DNA of 63,104 nt, the filler included, from Collodictyon triciliatum (Eukaryota), in assembly GCA_043381765.1 (NCBI GenBank). It is 14 parts of 14 records of this genome, joined end to end, with 100 filler letters (N's around TTAATTAATTAA, not from the genome) between each part and the next. Parts side by side here need not be neighbours in the genome. Positions count along the whole stretch, not along the records: positions 4,717 to 9,330 come from JBHJMP010005917.1; 13 more parts are not named here. One strand, 5' to 3'. How positions within the stretch are numbered: position 1 is the first letter of the stretch; each line of letters starts with the position of its first letter. This document shows positions 4,617-54,096 of the stretch, piece by piece. A program made the translations under genes and the position numbers. The notes beneath the pieces were generated by a model that was not told the origin of the DNA, searched no databases, and was given only the letters and a program-made list of their open reading frames with translations.

Positions 4617-4716
4617 NNNNNNNNNNNNNNNNNNNNNNNNNNNNNNNNNNNNNNNNNNNNTTAATTAATTAANNNNNNNNNNNNNNNNNNNNNNNNNNNN
4701 NNNNNNNNNNNNNNNN
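4617..4716. other. Artificial contig-joining spacer (first of 13)
   Basis: N44-TTAATTAATTAA-N44, which has stops in all six frames. It recurs at 9331, 14043, 18757, 23469, 28178, 32887, 37595, 42302, 45788, 50495, 55192 and 59895, each 100 nt long. Confidence 0.99.
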
Positions 4717-5637
4717 TTTGTCTATCCTTTTGCTCTTCCCCAAGCTACATATTGTATATCGGCTTTATTTTATTTTCTTGAAACCCTACGAATAAAAAAT
4801 AACAACCAGGATACAACCTCAAAAGCTGGCTCGATGGTGCGAATGAGACCTGTATATTTTGATAAGCGCCTCTTTGCTACCCCCCAAACATGTTTCCTAA
4901 TGATACAAATTAAAAAAAAGCGTCCACCTATACCAAATATCAACCGTGTGTTTGTTTCCTTGTTTATTCGTGGCCGTGAAAATTTTTTTCCCAAGGATCG
5001 ATCTGATCTATACCTCACAATGTGAATAAATAAAGTGATTACACAAAGAGACAGGGTTGAGAGGAACAATAAAGAAAAAAAACGAATAAGAAAAAAGAGT
5101 CCTTTGCTGAGAAATAAGCACACTGAGGCAGAAAAAGGACACATTCTTCAGAAAATAATATTATTACACTGGCGTTCTTTCCTTCTTCTCCCAACACACC
5201 ACATTCTGAAGCTGAAAGAAAAAACACGCAAGCGATCAGAAAGAGCGATCCCGAGAAGTATGAGACCGCCTACCAGGAGACCGACACCTATGAACGCCTA
5301 CTGATCGACGCAAACCGAGAAGGCCGACGCAGCCATCCTGGAGAGCGAAAAGGTCACTTGACCGCATCCCTTGCAACACAGGTTATGCACCGAGACACCG
5401 ACGATCAGGGCGCCAGCTGCCACTGACCTGTGAGTACAACAAACTACTAATAAGACGGAGCGAGCTATTTGAAACAAATAATATTAATATTAATAGTAAA
5501 GGGTAATAAAAAAGATGGAGCTCTTTGAAACAAATGATAATAACGATAATAACGATAATAACGATAATAACGATAATAACGATAATAACGATAATAATAA
5601 TAATAATAAAGGGGAATAAAAATGACCTATAAGCTCA

Positions 5638-5693
5638 AGCCATCGGCCCACAGGCAGCAAGATTATTATGATTATAGTGCTCAGTATTGGTTG
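5638..5693 (+). repeat. Dispersed repeat, copy A
   Basis: Ungapped 56-nt match to 39732-39787 on another contig, 44/56 identical by manual count, with shared core TATAGTGCTCAGTATT. Confidence 0.6.
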
Positions 5694-6169
5694 CTCTGAT
5701 TCATCTTTTCTTTTTCTTTTTCTTTTTCTTTTTCTTTTTCTTTTTCTTTTTCTTTTTCTTTTTCTTTTCTCATTCAGCCTGCAAATGGATAAACTTCATT
5801 GCAAAGGTTGTGACGAACTTGGTTTTACCCCTTTCAAGGCACACCACTTTTTATAAAACGAAAGTGTACCAATATATGCATAGCAGTTTATTGCACAGAA
5901 AACCATCGAATTAAATCTGGATTGACAAAAGCATGAGCTTTGATAAATCCAAGAAAGAACCTGAATAATATAATAGTATGATTAGAATATATAATAAGGT
6001 AAAAAATACTTAGTAATTTCATTATATTCCTGTAATCAATTTATATTTTATTTCCATTATGCAATATTAATTCTTTAAAATTCAAAAATACAAACAAGCC
6101 CTTGCCTTGGCCCAGACAGAACCCTACTTTTAAACCTACCACCAAACATGCATTTCAGAAAAGCATACT

Positions 6170-6290
6170 ATCCACACTTGCGGCGGTAATCATGTTGTTT
6201 GGGCCGATATATTGACTTTCAATCGCAATGGCTATACGGCCGCCCTTTCGAACTCGCCGAATCAGCTCTCAGCGTTTTGTCTCAAATCAC
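6170..6290 (-). pseudogene. Possible SAM-methyltransferase exon fragment
   Basis: The minus strand reads DKTLR/ELIRRVRKGGRIAIAIES with a frameshift, after an acceptor-like tttctttttgtaag. It resembles the E..RVLKPGG motif. Weak. Confidence 0.25.
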
Positions 6291-6454
6291 TTACAAAAAG
6301 AAACTTGGTGAGTTTGTTTGCCACAATGCGCACACTTTGAAAGTCTCGGTAGATGCTTAGTTTTACCTAAATTGATTTTGTGCAGTTTTTTCGTTGTTAA
6401 ATTGACTGATTGACTGATTGACTAAAGTTTTATTAAAATTGAAAACTCGGTAGT

Positions 6455-8330
6455 TTTCTAAAGGAAAAAGTAAAACAAAGACTTTCAGACGAAGAAAAGA
6501 AAACGCCTTGAGTCGGAGAATCTAAAGTCTGTAAAAACAGACTACCGAAATGTGTAAACATCTCTGGATTCGATTGTAAATAATGCGGATGACTATGAGA
6601 AAATTAACGATACGGTTTTATTGTATCATAATTTTGTTACCGACACTTATCTGTTTGAAACATGTTACATATTGAAATCACAACAGCTCCCAACAATCGA
6701 TGAAATGGTTTTTTTTTGTACGTTTTAAAGACAGTTCAGAGTAGTTTCACAAGGTAGACCAGCAAGTTTAAAAAAAAAAAAATACCAGAAAAGGGCTATG
6801 ACATGATTACTTTTTATCTCTATGATTTTCGATCCCTTTTGTCCCGAGAAGAACGCTTTCCTTGGTTGGACTGTCTCATGCATTACCGTACTTGGCGAAG
6901 CAAGTGTTAACAGCTTATCATAATAACATTAAGGAGCATTTTGTAAAGAGGTTATTGTGCTTTACAAATCAAACAGTACCTAAATATGAGAATATGACGG
7001 AAGCTATTAAAAAGGCAGAGTTACGAAAGTTAAAAAAGCCGTCTTTAAGAAACTCGAAATATCGGAATAATATAAAGGATGGGCTAAAATAAATTTGAAT
7101 CGTATCATTCCCAGCGATATTGTAAATGGTATCGAATATGACGTCAAAGCCAATCCAAGTAAGTACATTCCATGTCTCATTTGCATGAATCGCATTTTTG
7201 GGGAAATTGGAGCCAAACTGTTTCAATCAATATCTATAAGAAGTAACAATATACCATGTCATATTACTCCAGATACTGCATGTTTGATATATCTATTAGT
7301 GTCAGGTCGAAAATCATTATTAATGAAGAATATATCAGGATGCAAAGAGACACTATGGGATAAGTTCTTTGAAATGAAGAAGAGGGTCTTCATCAAAGAG
7401 GCTACAATTTTAAATGCACGACACAAACAGATGCCTTGGCGGCGTCATTATTGTTTGAAAAGAAAGGGATTTCAAATTCAAAATCCAAATATAACCAAAA
7501 CAACCCAAGAATATGTTTATATAGACGAACTTTCCGAAGAGCATTTATCTTTATTAGCGGAAAAAAAAATAGTTGGAGTGGGCGCAGGCAAGTTTAATTT
7601 TGTTTACATGGTGGATGAGACAGGCAAGAAATTACGTTGCACGGCACACCAAAGAAGACATGATAGCAAATCTCTTTAAAATCACAAATTACTCTTGCGA
7701 AAAAAAAAAAGTACAATTATTCAGCGATATACATGGCAACAGGTTTACAATGTGCTGTTTCTTTTGTTCCCCTGACTTTTGAAGAGAATCAGTAGTTTGA
7801 GACATTAAGAATATCTTTAATCGATTTAGAGACAGAACTGAGTAAACATAATTCATGCACGGTCGATTATGAATAATTTCGAACATATGTATCTGTGAAA
7901 TCAAGATACCAGATAGAACTACCTAGATTTTATGACATGATAACTTTTTGAAAGATGATATGGAGACAGTATGTTCATACAAAAAGAAGTGAACAGTTGT
8001 TTGTGGACCGAATGGAAAAGACATTTGGCAAGGATGTTGTAATGACGTATGGAGACTGGAGCAGAAAATGTCCGATGAAACATTTTATTGCCACAATCGG
8101 AAGAGGATTACGAAAAATACTGTCCAAACGTTTTGAAGCAGTTAGCGTAGACGAATTCTAAACCTCCAAGATATGTTGTAACTGCGAAAAAGAACTGGCA
8201 TATATGAAACTGAAAGGAAATTCAAAAAAAAAGTGTATAGAGGTCTCATATGTAAAGAATGCAATCGCTCAGAAAGCAAAGTGTATTCTTGACAAGGGAC
8301 TTTAACAGCGCTAATGATATCCCAAGAAAG
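6455..8330 (+). pseudogene. Fanzor1 (eukaryotic TnpB-derived RNA-guided RuvC endonuclease), decayed
   Basis: Intronless, and colinear across frameshifts and stops: N-term DYRNV*TSLDSIV..KINDTV..VTDTYLF; LPYLAKQVLTAYHNNIKEHFVKRL; RuvC-I IVGVGAGK (D>G at 7581-7583); WRQYVHTKRSE; YGDWS; RuvC-II SVDEF*TSK (8150-8170); zinc finger CCNC...CKEC; RuvC-III FLTRDFNSA (D at 8298-8300). Confidence 0.9.
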
Positions 8331-8349
8331 GTCTTTTAGTCCTTCAAAA

Positions 8350-8495
8350 TATGCCTACACCTCTCTTTAAAAAATAGGCTGTTGGGTCTTTCCTGGCGGC
8401 CTTCACCACTACACGGCCTTTATGAAAAAAGTGGTGAGACCTTGGATACTAGTGCACCAAGTTTACTAATCGAAAGATTCGTATACCCCTTCTAG
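8350..8495 (+). ncRNA. Candidate Fanzor omegaRNA scaffold / element right end
   Basis: Consecutive stems directly 3' of the ORF: GCCTA/TAGGC (8353-57/8375-79), TCACCACT/AGTGGTGA (8403-10/8430-37), CTTGG/CCAAG (8441-45/8457-61), and GTTTAC-T-AATC-GAAA-GATT-C-GTATAC (8461-86, GNRA loop). Confidence 0.6.
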
Positions 8496-9065
8496 TAGTA
8501 AATAAATGTTTGATTCTGTCCTTTTCTAATAAACAAATACAAGAACGTTCCATTCTCAATACATGCAAACTTTTTGCTGTCAAACCAAAAACCGGATATG
8601 TTGCGTACGGATGCTCTCGTTCCGTGGTCTCCTGTCATTTCCGTGATCCCCAAAGCAAAAGAACCATAACGTGGCTGTGGCATCCAAAGCCTGGAGCGGG
8701 ACGAACATACATAAGAGAAACATAGCCGGGATCAAGCAGTGTGAACATAAAGCTAGAGTGAGGCCATTGGAGCGAGTTCGATCTTTTGTGTTAAGCCACA
8801 CCTTCGCTTATACCTTCCTTTACTATGGCGGCCTCTCTTTCATCTAGTGATACGTACTTGAAGTCGTCGGGGTCTTTTCATTTTATTGCTTGCTTGCTTG
8901 CTTGCTTTCCTTTTCTTTTTTAAGGAAAAAACCCTAACATACTGGAAGTTTATAAGGAGAAAGGAATATAGAAGAGGTATTTTATTCGTTGAGACGATTT
9001 GCTTCAACAGAGGCTCTAAGCGGAAAGAATTCTACTCGAGGCGATTGGCTTGGTTTCTGGAAAGA

Positions 9066-9132
9066 ATGGAGACATCAGAAGAACTGGTTCTTCAGATTCA
9101 ACAGCAGCAACAAATAATCGAAAGGCTCAGCG
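9066..9132 (+). CDS. Possible first exon of a coiled-coil protein
   Basis: METSEELVLQIQQQQQIIERLS followed by a GT donor; the contig ends soon after. Confidence 0.3.
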
Positions 9133-10040
9133 GTATATGTAAGGTTGGTGTGACTTCTATAAAACTTGGCCCCCTTTCCTCCTGCTGTAACTCACAACGC
9201 CGGTCACTAGGATTATTCATATCCATATTTATTCTTTCCTTTTTTCTTTCCTTTTTTCTTTCCTTTTTTCTTTCCTTTTTTCTTTCCTTTTTTCTTTCCT
9301 TTTTTCTTTCCTTTTTTCTTTCCTTTTTTCNNNNNNNNNNNNNNNNNNNNNNNNNNNNNNNNNNNNNNNNNNNNTTAATTAATTAANNNNNNNNNNNNNN
9401 NNNNNNNNNNNNNNNNNNNNNNNNNNNNNNAAAACAAATAAAACAAATAAAACAAATAAAACAAATAAAACAAACAAAACAAACAAAACAAACAAAACAA
9501 ACAAAACAAACTAAACAAACTAAACAAACTAAACAAACAAAACAAAAAAAAAACGAAACAAACAAAACAAACAAAACAAACAAACTAAACAAACAAAACA
9601 AACAAAACAAACAAAACAAACAAACAAAACAAACAAACAAAACAAACAATCATACTGAGGTTACCTTGTAATTACAAGACTTTTTTTTTACCAGAAACTC
9701 ACGCAACATGACTGAGGCGCTTCAATCTGCGCTGTCGAGCCTCAGCCGCGTAAGCTGTTCCATTCATATTTTTCTACTTTTATCCCCGGTTCTTCTTAAG
9801 ATGGAAGAATATTGTGAAAAAAAAAAGAAAGCAAGAATTAAAAATGTAAGGGGGGGGGGGGGGGTTAGGGGAAAGGGAAAAAAAAAAAAAAAAAAAAAGA
9901 GGGGGGGGGGGGGGGGGGTTATGGAGAATGGCAACAAAAAAAAAGTGAAAAAGGAAACGCAAAAACTCAGGAATAACTTGACGAGCCAGCAAGTGACAAC
10001 TGATTTCTTTTTCCGCTGCTGACTTGATTGTCTCTCTCAG

Positions 10041-13935: not shown

Positions 13936-14157
13936 GTGAGCAAATACCTATACCTATACCTATACCTATACCTATACCTATACCTATACCTATACCTATA
14001 CCTATACCTATACCTATACCTATACCTATACCTATACCTATANNNNNNNNNNNNNNNNNNNNNNNNNNNNNNNNNNNNNNNNNNNNTTAATTAATTAANN
14101 NNNNNNNNNNNNNNNNNNNNNNNNNNNNNNNNNNNNNNNNNNACCTTTTATAAATAA

Positions 14158-39152: not shown

Positions 39153-39731
39153 TCAGCGTCCTTCCAAGGCCGTCCTACTTACCCATATAGAGCCCATCCA
39201 TATTACTATTAATGAGGTGCGACAAGTTTATACCCTTCTTGCCCCTAGAAATAATAGTCAATGAATATACATTCCCTTAAATGAGGTGGGTTAAAACAGC
39301 TCCGTAAAAAACAGTGTAAGTTTTATGCCATTAGAAAAAATTGAGATGTTATTGACGGCTTTTCATGCTGATATTGTCTTAAGTTTGAATATCGAATGGC
39401 ATACAAATAAAACTAATTAGTTCGATTTGACAAAGCAATAAGATAAGCAGAAAGGTTATTTCGTTGTCCTATCTACATGAGCGACGACCAAGTAAATTCC
39501 CATAATTTGAGAAGAAAACGAGAAAAAAGCGGCTGTAAAATGAGAAGCATAATGAGTCGCCTGAAAAAAAAGGGAAACCGGACTAGCAATGATGCAGGTT
39601 TACGATAGGCAAAAAAAGCAAAGGGAGACACTGCAGCAAATAGAAGAATGGCTTCATGACCAAGCAATCCGCGCAATGAACCGAAGAGAACAAGAAAGGC
39701 CTGATGAAAGGGTTAGTAGGGCCCATTTTCT

Positions 39732-39787
39732 AGCCATCAAGTCAAAGATAGCAACATAATTATGAATATAGTGCTCAGTATTAATTG
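39732..39787 (+). repeat. Dispersed repeat, copy B
   Basis: Matches 5638-5693 at 44/56, ungapped. Confidence 0.6.
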
Positions 39788-40149
39788 TTATGCTTCGTTT
39801 ATCTGTTTCTATGTTTTCTTTTTTCTTTTCACCATTCCTAGGCGAAGCACAGGTACCAAAGGTAGTATTAAGTAGATATCTGTATCATTTTTATATTTAT
39901 ATTTATTTCCTTCACTACCCGAGCCATACAGAGCTGAGGGTGAATACCAGACCTTACTTTGTTAAGAAATCATCACATCCACTTAATCCTGCACCCACAG
40001 AGCACTTTGTCTCCTTTCAGCCATAACCAACGCCAGAGAGCAAAGACTGGAACATATATTTGTATTGGTATCGATAACAGAGCAGGAGGAGGAAGAAGAG
40101 AATGGAAGACCTTACAATTTTTGCGACTTTACGCCTACCAAAGAATCAT

Positions 40150-50723: not shown

Positions 50724-53700
50724 TTAGACACCTTGCCTCCATGGTTTCCTATGTTTAGTTGTATTAAGCGTCTAAATATTTCGAATAATAAGGTTTGGAT
50801 AAGGGTTTATATATATTTGTGCATGTAATATATATGCATAATTTCATACATATGTATTAAAAATTCTATCGAACACATGAATTGAGCAACAAATTTCTTG
50901 GTAGATGTGCTCCTTGCCTGATGAGATGTCCATTTTACAATCGTTAGCTGAGTTAGATATATCAAATAATAGTGTATGTATTATACTTTATCCAAATGCA
51001 TGGAATGAAATCAATTTTTTAAGTGGATGTCTTTCAATATGAAAGATAAATATAGTATTATTTTTGAGAGTGTCTCTCTTTTTTCTTTCGAAAATATAAC
51101 ATGAAAACGCATGATCTGACTTAGTTATCTGAGATTCCACAAGTTCTGTTTACGTTACAAAAGATGGAAGCTCTTAATGTATCCAACAACCAGGTGTGTT
51201 TGAAAAGTTCTATGAGGACGATAGAAAGTAGAAAAAATAATGTAGTATATTATACTTGTCTTATGTAAATTTTAAATTTTCTTTAAAATAGCCAAACTTA
51301 ATTACATTCGTTATGTAATTGCTGATTTTTTTAAATCAAATTATAGATACTTGAAATTTCTCATCAAATATATATGCTTGCTAAATTAAGAAGGCTAGAT
51401 ATTACCAAAAATCAGGTATATTGACGCGACCTCTCCGCCTTTGCTCCGCTTTTTCTAAACAGAAAATTCCATTCATGATATTTGGTCATCTCATTTTGAT
51501 AAATAATGGAGGAAAAACAACAACTAGGTTCAATACATCCCAGAGTCTCTAGCCTTTCTTTCAGACCTTACAGAATTAAGCCTCGAAAGTGAAGATATGA
51601 TATACCCATCATCACAAACATGTCGACAAGGTCTCCCTAACATTCAGAGGTTTCTGAGAGAAAGGCTTCATGAGCCTGCAACCCTTCTAACGAACAGAAT
51701 TCTTATATTGGGTGAGCAGGCAACTGGAAAAACTACCCTAACAAAAACTCTCCTTCAAAAAAGTTCCAAATTCAAATCTACTTGCGAGACTGTGAGCATG
51801 GCCACGGTTGGTGCTGATATTAACGATGAGATTATGGAAATTGATATAAATGGATATCAAACCAAGATATCTTTGTGGGATTTCGGGGGACAAGCTGAAT
51901 TTCAAGTTACCCACCCCTTTTTTCTTTCGAACAAAACACTTATACTTGTTTTATGGGATATATCTATTGGAGCTGAGAAGAGTAAAATATTGGAGTGGCT
52001 ATCTCTTATCGAAGCCAGCACCAAACAGTCGCCCTCTCTACCCGATTTACCGAGGGTAATCATCGTTGGAACAAAATCTGACCATGGAATCGTGAAAACT
52101 GCAGCTGAGAGAAAGAGAAGACTTGAAGAATTACGGGTTATGTTGGATGCCTTTCGAGGGAAGATACAATTTGACGGATTTGTTTTGATAAGTAATCAAA
52201 GTGGTGAAGGTATACCAGAGTTAAAGGAACTGATACATACATCTATAAAATCACTTACCGAATCGTTTGAAAAATTGCCCTCTATCTATTCTGTTCTGTG
52301 TACCTTTTCTCAGATGGTATGTCGCATACGAGACCCACCGTTGGCAAAATATGCCGAATTCAACGAAATATGCTCCATATACGATGGTCAGAAAATCCCA
52401 GAACCTGATCCATATTTAAAACAAATGCATCATTTAGGACTCGTTGTGTGGCATGACATATATCCAGTCAATAATATTGTCATATGTGACCCACGATTCC
52501 TGATTCGCGTATTCGTTCAAGTCTTTAATTTTTTAAAGACATCAAAAGACGCAGGGACTTATATGCACCGCCAATTGGTATCAGAGCTAAATCAAGAATT
52601 CCCTGGCCTAGCCGATTACATTATCGAACTATTTCGATTATTCCGTCTTAGTGTATCATGCTCAGAGGTTGAATTATTTCCGTCCATACTTCCAGTAGGA
52701 TTACCACCTATTGATATATGGTCACAAAATCCAACAGTAAACAATTGCTCGTCGTGGATTTCAATATCTGTGGATTTTTCGTTCCTTCCGAAGGGGTTTT
52801 ATGGGTCGCTCGTGGCCAGTTTTTACAAGTTTTGTGATAACCCATCATCCAAACTCGAGGGAATGATGTTTTGTAGTGGCTCACATTGCGTCCTCCACAC
52901 ATCAAGAGTGATTCGGACAACCCATGCAAGGAATGATGAAAGTCATGCAGCTAGTAGCTTAGTGAGCATATGCATCGAAAGATATTCTGGGTCTCATTCG
53001 ATATATATTACAGTCAGAATAAAGCAAGACAAAGACATGCACGCATGTGACGCGATTGAAACCCTGGAAGCACTGGTGAAAGAGTCTTTGGTGAGCTACC
53101 CTGGCGTATCATGGGAGACACGTATCTTGTGCCCGGGTTGTATTTACGAAGGAAAACCTTTGAGCCGGGCGAGTAAAGAGCAAAAATCTATTATCTCTGT
53201 AAAAGGTGGTCAAAAATGCAATAGTTTTCAACACTTGGTGACCGAGCATGAATGGAGAAACGGGCGACTGAGTTCAGACCACCCCAAAGAGTACGGAGAA
53301 ATGGATGATTGCCCTGTTTTGTTCTGGATTGACATGGAATCGTCTCTGGTCACACACAACACATGGAGATTGCACTTATTGTGTGACCGTCCAAATGAAC
53401 CCCACGCCACAACCCACGAAGGTTATGTCATTCAAACGCCCGCAACATTCAGCAAAAAGTACTCTCGCGCGATTTCCAGGTGTCTGCAGCTCGGAGCTGT
53501 GCTCTGTTCCTGGCTCCCCATGGTGGGGAATGCGTCAAAGTCCCTTATTCTCTGCCAAGAAAAGATTGATGCATTCTGCGATGATAGACAGTCTTCCTTA
53601 GATTCAATATTCACATCTAGCAAATATGAGTCAACTTCGGCCAATTCTTCGCTATCTTCATTGGAACTTCTGGATGAAATAGACCCTGCCCATCACTGGA

Positions 53701-54096
53701 GGAATATTCTTTATCCTGTTGTCCTCCCCGGGAAGCAAAAAAGATGGCTCTGTCGCGATTGCCGCCTCATATATGAAAGGACTGCCATAGTTCGCCATTA
53801 TTCTCCAAAGTCAGCTTACATACAATACAAGCAAAGGCGGTTTGGAGGTATGTCTAGTAAACTCATCCGTGTCTTTGTTGTCCTTGATACTCAGAAGGAA
53901 TTGATTCGACTTTGGAGGGACTCCACCATGCGTGAAAATCTTGAGGACATCCAACTATCTGGTGGCTTTCAGGTTTGAAATTTATTCATCATTTCAAAAC
54001 TGGTTCGGGTATTGCCTTGTAACTTGATGTGGGCGTTAATCCAACTAGTACATGGCAATTGTGTTGACAAAAAATTCAAGAGACAAAATATTAATG

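Follow-up and report, generated by a model that had tools for sequence, protein, structure and literature searches.

Do the short open frames scattered around positions 6455–8330 of a 63,104-base stretch from the Collodictyon triciliatum assembly (GCA_043381765.1; the whole stretch is called the window below) descend from one gene and, if so, which gene was it and can it still make a protein? Fanzor1 is a eukaryotic TnpB-type RNA-guided RuvC endonuclease. A sequence-only reading had proposed that these frames are a near-full-length Fanzor1, dead in this copy, and that the genome may hold intact copies of a new programmable nuclease. We found that the plus-strand stretch 6489–8413 is very probably a near-full-length, decayed and non-functional Fanzor1 copy, carried in a single-gene, transposase-less eukaryotic repeat of about 2.6 kb. 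The limits first given were slightly off: the coding remnant occupies 6489–8413, within a repeat that begins at 5850 or earlier and ends near 8475. The copy is a dead new member of a known, very large family, and in that sense ordinary.

Rebuilding the protein

The longest open frame at the locus is 202 codons (7071–7679), and a three-frame reading spreads the named motifs over different frames. When this 202-codon piece was searched against 5.8 billion proteins, with longer proteins only admitted, two of the 3620 candidates matched: P0001 (648 amino acids; E = 1.4e-51, 50% identity across the entire fragment) and P0002 (677 amino acids; E = 1.4e-15). P0001, encoded on a contig of 2610 bases in a public (ENA) assembly, is uninterrupted and carries an N-terminal KKRKR, VDPGK, TDG, YGDWS, NEFRTSK, CCNC...CKEC and RDFNSANNI.

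We aligned window positions 6300–8700 to P0001 by frameshift-aware dynamic programming, which scores codon matches, penalizes stops and allows 1- and 2-base shifts. The alignment joined 6492–8413 (plus strand) to P0001 residues 2–642 in 12 frame segments, with 381 of 629 residues identical (61%), and so bore out the proposal that the scattered frames rebuild one protein. A tblastn search of the whole window with P0001 gave E = 2.9e-85 and 1.5e-69 at the locus and nothing better than E = 1.1 elsewhere. The profile search that had been suggested as a check pointed to the same place: of the 2507 six-frame, stop-to-stop pieces of at least 15 codons in the window, a profile hidden Markov model (HMM) of 44 aligned family proteins (A1) matched six (E = 1.4e-49, 6.3e-26, 2.9e-14, 1.8e-08, 7e-07 and 0.007). 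All six lie on the plus strand within 6558–8302, colinear with the profile, and the rest of the window was scoreless. Further copies in the window were not found, 152 family proteins giving no match outside 6300–8600. The match at 6489–8413 is far beyond chance.

The family could be named from protein structures. Fragment 7952–8302, with X at the TAA, matched the Protein Data Bank (PDB) entries PpFz1 (Parasitella; E = 9.2e-08) and SpuFz1 (Spizellomyces; E = 5.9e-05), and fragment 7071–7679 matched the same two proteins (E = 0.0015 and 0.085); both fragments fell at colinear places of PpFz1 and SpuFz1, and the only significant PDB matches were Fanzor1 chains. Searched in its turn, P0001 matched GtFz1 (Guillardia; E = 2.1e-28), PpFz1 (2.7e-24) and SpuFz1 (3.7e-23), the other rows being myoglobin noise (E = 0.38 and 0.62); no Fanzor2 or TnpB chain appeared at E ≤ 1.

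The fold was assessed for P0001, which is intact, in place of the broken window copy. An AlphaFold2 model of P0001 built from the 44-sequence alignment (mean pLDDT 85.8, pTM 0.83) has a predicted REC2 pair of long helices (460–481 and 484–512) between RuvC-I and RuvC-II. In a Foldseek search of the PDB, ranks 1–7 were all Fanzor1 chains (SpuFz1, PpFz1 and GtFz1; E = 9.7e-28 to 3.4e-22, TMq 0.60–0.76), with TMq/TMt of 0.76/0.81 on SpuFz1. Cas12 proteins came next, then the mimivirus Fanzor2 ApmFz2 (9b0l) at rank 16 (TMq 0.22) and TnpB chains at ranks 27 and 39 (TMq 0.20–0.23). A Fanzor2 or IS607-type TnpB identity was rejected on this comparison, with TMq of 0.20–0.23 for ApmFz2 and TnpB against 0.60–0.76 for Fanzor1 chains. 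The Fanzor1 identity and domain order given by the sequence-only reading thus agree with the PDB, HMM and Foldseek matches, and every motif it named could be located.

Lesions and surviving motifs

The rebuilt copy and its landmarks, all on the plus strand, are as follows.

6492–8413: Fanzor1 pseudogene body, in 12 frame segments with 8 in-frame stops and about 11 frameshifts
6489–6491: former start codon, ACG and not ATG, preceding the first aligned lysine
6492–6506: N-terminal basic stretch KKRKR, identical in P0001
7427–7435: WED-domain TDG motif, here TDA, placed by alignment with P0001, which has TDG
7569–7595: RuvC-I, IVGVGAGKF, with GAG in place of DPG, the catalytic Asp and the Pro both being lost
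8045–8062: TYGDWS, with the Gly at the canonical RuvC-II position kept (G521 column invariant in the 44-sequence alignment)
8147–8173: VDEF*TSKI, with the alternative RuvC-II Glu kept (E555 column invariant) and a TAA at 8159–8161 where relatives have Arg
8174–8268: C4 zinc finger CCNC...CKEC, with its cysteines kept and a frameshift at 8225 in an A run
8289–8321: RuvC-III, LTRDFNSANDI, with the catalytic Asp kept (R603 and D604 invariant in the 44-sequence alignment)

The stops are TAA at 6555, 7068, 7677, 7874 and 8159, TAG at 7793 and 8375, and TGA at 7949. At these eight sites P0001 has K, Y, R, N, K, R, R and Q, and no single stop reassignment would rescue the frame, as three kinds of stop stand over different P0001 residues. 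An alternative genetic code or programmed frameshifting was therefore rejected, the 11 frameshifts adding to the three kinds of stop at K, Y, R, N and Q sites. The number of frameshifts, about 11, depends on the gap penalties, and at least four of them (6708, 6768, 7698 and 8225) lie in or beside runs of 9–13 identical bases. Decay is evenly spread and does not spare the 3′ end, where 8322 is a frameshift site and 8375 a stop.

The basic stretch at 6492–6506 looks like a nuclear localization signal, and Fanzors are described as carrying N-terminal localization signals (PMC10530073). The TDG motif of the Fanzor1 WED domain was named by Yoon et al. 2023 (PMC10711439); across the 44 sequences T312 is invariant and D313 and G314 are each present in at least 90%, and the change to TDA is a single-residue decay in the window copy. 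In RuvC-I, D364 and P365 of DPG are invariant in 44 of 44 relatives; their loss is among the lesions that turn the copy into a pseudogene, and we therefore file the locus as Fanzor1-derived and not as a working Fanzor1.

Further downstream, the rearranged RuvC-II that is described for Fanzors, with Gly or Pro at the canonical Glu site and an alternative Glu beyond it (PMC10530073 and PMC10711439), appears to be present as the Gly of YGDWS followed by the Glu of EF.TSK, a structural equivalence that we infer from the alignment. The Fanzor C-terminal motif given by Bao and Jurka 2013 (PMC3627910), [TS][TS]-x-x-C4 zinc finger-x(5,50)-RD, can be read at 8162–8300 as TSKI-CCNC...CKEC...RD, broken by two frameshifts and by the stop just upstream. 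With no ATG, eight stops, about 11 frameshifts and a RuvC-I that reads VGAG, the copy is as dead as first described: 6489–8413 descends from a Fanzor1 gene and has lost its function.

The repeat, its possible carrier and its kin

Is this one stray fossil, or a copy of a repeat? A word index of public sequencing runs returned 15 runs from 10 studies, mostly freshwater metagenomes, each holding at most 0.10 of the sampled words; two of the 15 are labelled with an organism (coded organisms A and B), and no RNA run was listed among the matches. Contigs of four runs were placed on 5850–8850 at a likeness of at least 80%.

Run X1 (organism-labelled): 461 contigs, of which 34 at 99% or more, 115 at 95–99%, 160 at 90–95% and 152 under 90%
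Run X6 (organism-labelled): 435 contigs, of which 24 at 99% or more, 97 at 95–99%, 168 at 90–95% and 146 under 90%
Run X2 (a metagenome): 165 contigs, of which 4 at 99% or more, 18 at 95–99%, 72 at 90–95% and 71 under 90%
Run X3: 4 contigs, of which 1 at 99% or more, none at 95–99%, none at 90–95% and 3 under 90%
5850–6488, plus strand: upstream non-coding part of the repeated element, covered by X1 and X6 contigs at a summed word depth of 58.8 to 483, such summed depths not being equal to copy numbers

Up to 21 different X1 contigs lie over one position (7062), for which many diverged copies are the only possible source. Cover by X1 and X6 is continuous from the left edge of the mapping (5850) to 8375–8475, where it stands at 181.1 and 114.6, falls to 3.53 and 1.93 in 8476–8576 and is then zero; cover of the repeat ends between about 8436 and 8478. 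X2 cover continues thinly across the flank (1.4–2.9), which fits an orthologous locus in the source or a near relative. On the left, X6 and X1 contigs tile from 5902 across the start of the open reading frame (ORF; for example, X6 records 5902–6303 and 6235–6596), so that 590 bases or more ahead of the start codon belong to the repeat. The repeated unit thus reaches from at or before 5850, where mapping began, to about 8475. Two ORFs within 5850–6488 gave no Pfam match.

At sites where almost all other copies disagree with the window copy, their letters bring back sense. The analysis of differences printed the 40 best-supported sites, with 755 more not shown; 38 of the 40 fall in 36 aligned codons, and the others are at 6490 and, upstream of the ORF, 5945. 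At 6490 the other copies have T, which makes ATG (12 contigs in X1 and 9 in X6, all of the depth there, and none of the depth of 13.8 in X2). At 8159–8160 they have AG, which gives Arg in place of the window's TAA, and at 7639 they have A, which gives Tyr (Y383), the residue found in at least 90% of 44 aligned relatives. Four extra bases stand behind 8276, a frameshift site, in four X1 and three X6 contigs, about half of the depth. Over the 36 codons, the letter of the other copies gave P0001's residue in 19, moved away from P0001 in 3, was synonymous in 6 and did neither in 8. With 19 residues restored against 3 moved away, many of the window copy's mutations are its own and most of the family lies nearer to intact P0001; better-preserved copies probably still exist in related organisms. 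That this genome holds a Fanzor family, as the sequence-only reading implied, has indirect support only, from diverged pieces in two organism-labelled runs and a freshwater metagenome and from the intact 648-residue P0001.

These contigs also bear on whether the gene might be alive and its lesions mere artefacts of a short-read draft, through miscounted homopolymers or a chimaera of diverged repeat copies. Such errors would be at home here: the window is strung together from draft pieces of about 4.6 kb that break at microsatellites, the element is highly repeated in related data, and at least 4 of the 11 frameshifts lie in or next to runs of 9–13 identical bases. Eight substitution-type stops, the change of ATG to ACG and, in RuvC-I, those of Asp to Gly and Pro to Ala are not homopolymer errors, however, and independent runs reproduce this very copy, with 34 contigs in X1 and 24 in X6 at least 99% alike. 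A 195-base X3 contig equals 8041–8235 without a difference, the TAA at 8159 included, although X3 could be the window's own sample. We consider a living gene at this locus highly unlikely.

The assembly itself limits what can be called the surroundings of the copy. A regular-expression map of N runs showed that the window (1–63104) is 14 assembly pieces chained by identical 100-base linkers (N44 + TTAATTAATTAA + N44) at 4617–4716, 9331–9430, 14043–14142 and ten more places. Twelve pieces measure 4597–4616 bases, one 3386 and the last 3110, mostly sorted from large to small, and the majority break in microsatellites.

4717–9330, no strand: assembly piece with the pseudogene, 4614 bases, with a 100-base linker on each side

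Only this piece is physically linked to the Fanzor1 copy, as linkers bound both its sides. Neighbouring pieces in the window are not genomic neighbours, and the treatment of the 63-kb window as one locus has to be given up. The piece has microsatellites at its start and end, and long microsatellite flanks surround the copy.

P0001 has a great many relatives. A HMMER search of 1.84 billion cluster representatives with P0001 gave 3147 matches at E ≤ 1e-3, of which 1703 reach E ≤ 1e-10 and 537 reach E ≤ 1e-30; the proteins listed are mostly 600–750 amino acids long. Fanzor1 elements built like this one have been on record since 2013 (PMC3627910) and the RNA-guided activity of Fanzors since 2023 (PMC10432273 and PMC10530073), and against these reports and the 3147 representatives the implied novelty of the nuclease fell away. 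The Atlas neighbours of P0001 (score 0.99; clusters of 52–126 members) are 92–100% viral by taxon, chiefly Nucleocytoviricota, a placement that is a feature-based lead and not an alignment; PF26935 (DUF8286) is found on 74–95% of members in the Atlas's four nearest cluster sets. The same family is listed for P0001 and P0002 by precomputed annotation and the Atlas, and the Pfam-A copy that we used gave no such match. Its model is seemingly absent from that copy, and Pfam scans here consequently under-report the clade.

Genomic context came from P0003, which ranks second among the representatives by summed score against the window. IMG/VR contains five relatives of P0003 at 49–88% identity, four of them at 80–88%, on contigs of 57–255 kb, one of which is labelled as a giant-virus genome bin. 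Here the Fanzor1 gene sits in a 3.3-kb unit (L002, 1631–4952; also L003–L005) with 33-base inverted ends at 97% identity, apparently flanked by TA. An opposite-strand ORF of 346 amino acids matches DDE_3 (E = 1.3e-13), with an HTH domain just under the cut-off, and the Fanzor1 ORF is intact (634 amino acids) and stops 15–50 bases before the right end of the unit. L003, L004 and L005 are 100% identical over all shared sequence, yet they are three different contigs. Identity of the window copy is 45% (257/569) with the L002 Fanzor1 and 61% with P0001. Close relatives of P0001 were not found in IMG/VR, nor did the 202-residue window fragment match any GTDB genome contig; JGI metagenome contigs gave one distant locus (21% identity), which was not used. 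The nearest sublineage of known context is therefore giant-virus Fanzor1 in IS630/Tc1-mariner-type elements, which suggests, but does not show, an IS630/mariner-type carrier here and exchange between virus and host.

Is the stretch itself giant-virus DNA, then, either inserted into the host genome or from a viral contig sorted into the eukaryote's bin? Two organism-labelled runs yield hundreds of diverged pieces (80–99% alike), as would be expected of an element that multiplied and decayed in a cellular genome, and the copy is heavily decayed. Its piece is flanked by long microsatellites, and none of the nine flanking ORFs tested has a credible family match. The viral affinities listed above (nearest Atlas clusters 92–100% viral and mostly Nucleocytoviricota, P0003 relatives on IMG/VR contigs including a giant-virus bin, and matching runs that are mostly freshwater metagenomes) would suit a viral origin, but IMG/VR holds no close relative of P0001, and the window copy's identity to the L002 protein (45%) is well below that to P0001 (61%). 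We regard a viral stretch as very improbable.

Returning to a decayed copy in a transposase-less eukaryotic repeat, we looked at the ends of the element and at the place where a guide RNA would be expected.

5842–5868, no strand: left arm of the sole bracketing inverted repeat, with its partner at 8410–8436, 74% complementary with an 11-base exact core
8230–8480, plus strand: 3′ end of the ORF and short tail, the expected place of an omega/fRNA scaffold, with a moderate structure signal

Several observations speak against our reading. The bracketing inverted repeat is at chance level, 94 of 500 shuffles and 84 of 433 real windows scoring as high, and we rejected the pair 5842–5868/8410–8436 as proof of element ends. 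Compared with the 33-base viral ends, the candidate ends scored 13–24 where the 99th percentile of the null was 22, and the 24 was out of register. On the 4.6-kb piece, neither Pfam on nine flanking ORFs nor tblastn with the viral transposase found a transposase or a remnant of one. A possible guide RNA is hinted at by the fold of the 251 bases at 8230–8480 (−66.7 kcal/mol, z = −2.37, 4 of 200 shuffles as good). Curated Pfam barely detects the locus, the best match of the window fragments being a weak PF07282 at the zinc finger (E = 0.0097, 16.5 bits, under the 26.3 cut-off), and P0001 itself has no family in the Pfam-A copy used. Several frameshifts fall in homopolymer runs, where part of them could stem from misassembly, and the many-copy runs, in which no more than 0.10 of the sampled words occur, may come from relatives and not from the source.

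Some side results belong with these. The remaining Pfam matches of window fragments (Endonuclease_7, DUF5958 and UPA_2) were dismissed as noise, and the viral transposase gave tblastn matches in the window at E = 0.12 and 1.6, both on other pieces. The spacing of the inverted repeat, about 2.6 kb, recalls the 2610-base contig of P0001, which is suggestive and nothing more. A Helitron-type ending was considered from the letters alone, as a candidate hairpin at 8404–8436 is followed by CTAG at 8448–8451.

The moderate fold at 8230–8480 (z = −2.37, 4 of 200 shuffles as good) and the mention by Saito et al. (PMC10432273) of guide sequences from ghost loci might suggest that the remnant is kept as a non-coding or guide RNA source serving intact Fanzor copies elsewhere, but 8230–8480 has no Rfam match and decay runs evenly along the locus, 3′ end included (frameshift 8322, stop 8375), and we find this the most improbable of the alternatives.

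The rest of the piece offers a few further features. About 400 bases to the left of the repeat, 5200–5435 (plus strand) is richer in G+C and ends in ...CTG followed by GTGAGT, like an exon with its 5′ splice site; ORFs in this exon-like stretch had no family match. From this pattern the Fanzor1 element may lie within an intron. Just left of the element, a stretch of about 100 bases (5635–5734) recurs on another piece at 39729–39830 with 76% identity, and some X6 contigs fuse its left part straight to 5863 onward, omitting 5664–5862. Either a second repeat family adjoins the Fanzor element here, or the element has a variable left end. Rfam and transfer RNA scans of the window gave no matches. 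On another piece, 51528–53978 (plus strand) is an 816-codon open frame whose Atlas features resemble a ROCO-family protein (LRR, Roc GTPase and COR), with chordate and bacterial clusters among the nearest; it is unrelated to the Fanzor1 copy, and it indicates that the standard code yields long open frames in this assembly.

How an intact member would work can be sketched from the family. The protein would bind a structured guide RNA, transcribed from the 3′ end of its gene together with the transposon's right end, would recognize a short target-adjacent motif, and would then cut double-stranded DNA next to it with a rearranged triad of the RuvC-I Asp, the alternative Glu and the RuvC-III Asp. 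The element would be moved in trans by a transposase encoded elsewhere. We put forward tentatively, as a possibility and not as the likelier case, that the family is alive in the source or its close relatives, in the form of intact, transposase-less 2.6-kb elements that encode a compact Fanzor1 of about 648 amino acids with an N-terminal basic signal, belong to a giant-virus-dominated clade, are mobilized in trans and are exchanged between giant viruses and a freshwater eukaryotic host. If so, it would provide a host–virus pair in which to study the biological role of Fanzor, and another natural nuclease.

In itself the dead copy matters little: a family catalogued in 2013 and recognized as RNA-guided nucleases in 2023 gains a further host lineage and another decayed transposon. 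Its value is that it flags a high-copy, Fanzor1-only element in a probably freshwater eukaryote, that its nearest relatives of known context are in giant viruses and so bear on the old idea of viral Fanzor spread among eukaryotes, and that the intact relative P0001 is directly testable.

Comparison with known Fanzor1 systems

The prototype Fanzor1 element is SPu-1 of Spizellomyces punctatus, whose protein is SpuFz1 (PDB 8GKH and 9CEU–9CEZ). SPu-1 is described as a single-ORF, transposase-less element of about 2 kb that encodes a Fanzor1 of about 630 amino acids and is present in many copies, some of them broken (PMC3627910). The P0001 model resembles SpuFz1 closely (TMq/TMt 0.76/0.81), whereas sequence identity is only about 20%. 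SPu-1 has clear 33-bp inverted ends and TA duplications, whereas the bracketing repeat in the window is at chance level; SpuFz1 has demonstrated activity (Saito et al. 2023, PMC10432273), whereas the window copy is unable to make a protein.

The giant-virus Fanzor1 elements (L002–L005, and PGv-1 of Bao and Jurka 2013) share the Fanzor1 sublineage with the window's family, PF26935 being common to most members of the nearest Atlas clusters and to P0001 and P0002, and in both the ORF stops some tens of bases short of the unit's right border. They differ in that the viral unit measures 3.3 kb and has 33-base inverted ends and a 346-residue DDE_3 transposase, of which the window shows no trace; the proteins are 45% identical. 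CMe-1A of Cyanidioschyzon merolae is described as old, ‘non-autonomous’ and Fanzor1-only, with copies that match the family consensus at about 80% and in part are still intact (PMC3627910). The window's family has a similar spread of 80–99% but differs in host and lineage, and the two are likened by description only.

The closest counterpart is P0001, which is colinear with the window copy over residues 2–642 at 61% identity and has KKRKR, YGDWS, EF.TSK, CCNC...CKEC and RDFNSAN in common with it. P0001 differs in having an open frame, ATG, DPG and TDG; it may be a member of the window copy's transposon family or of a sister family. The public-run copies of the window's family are closer to P0001 than the window copy is.

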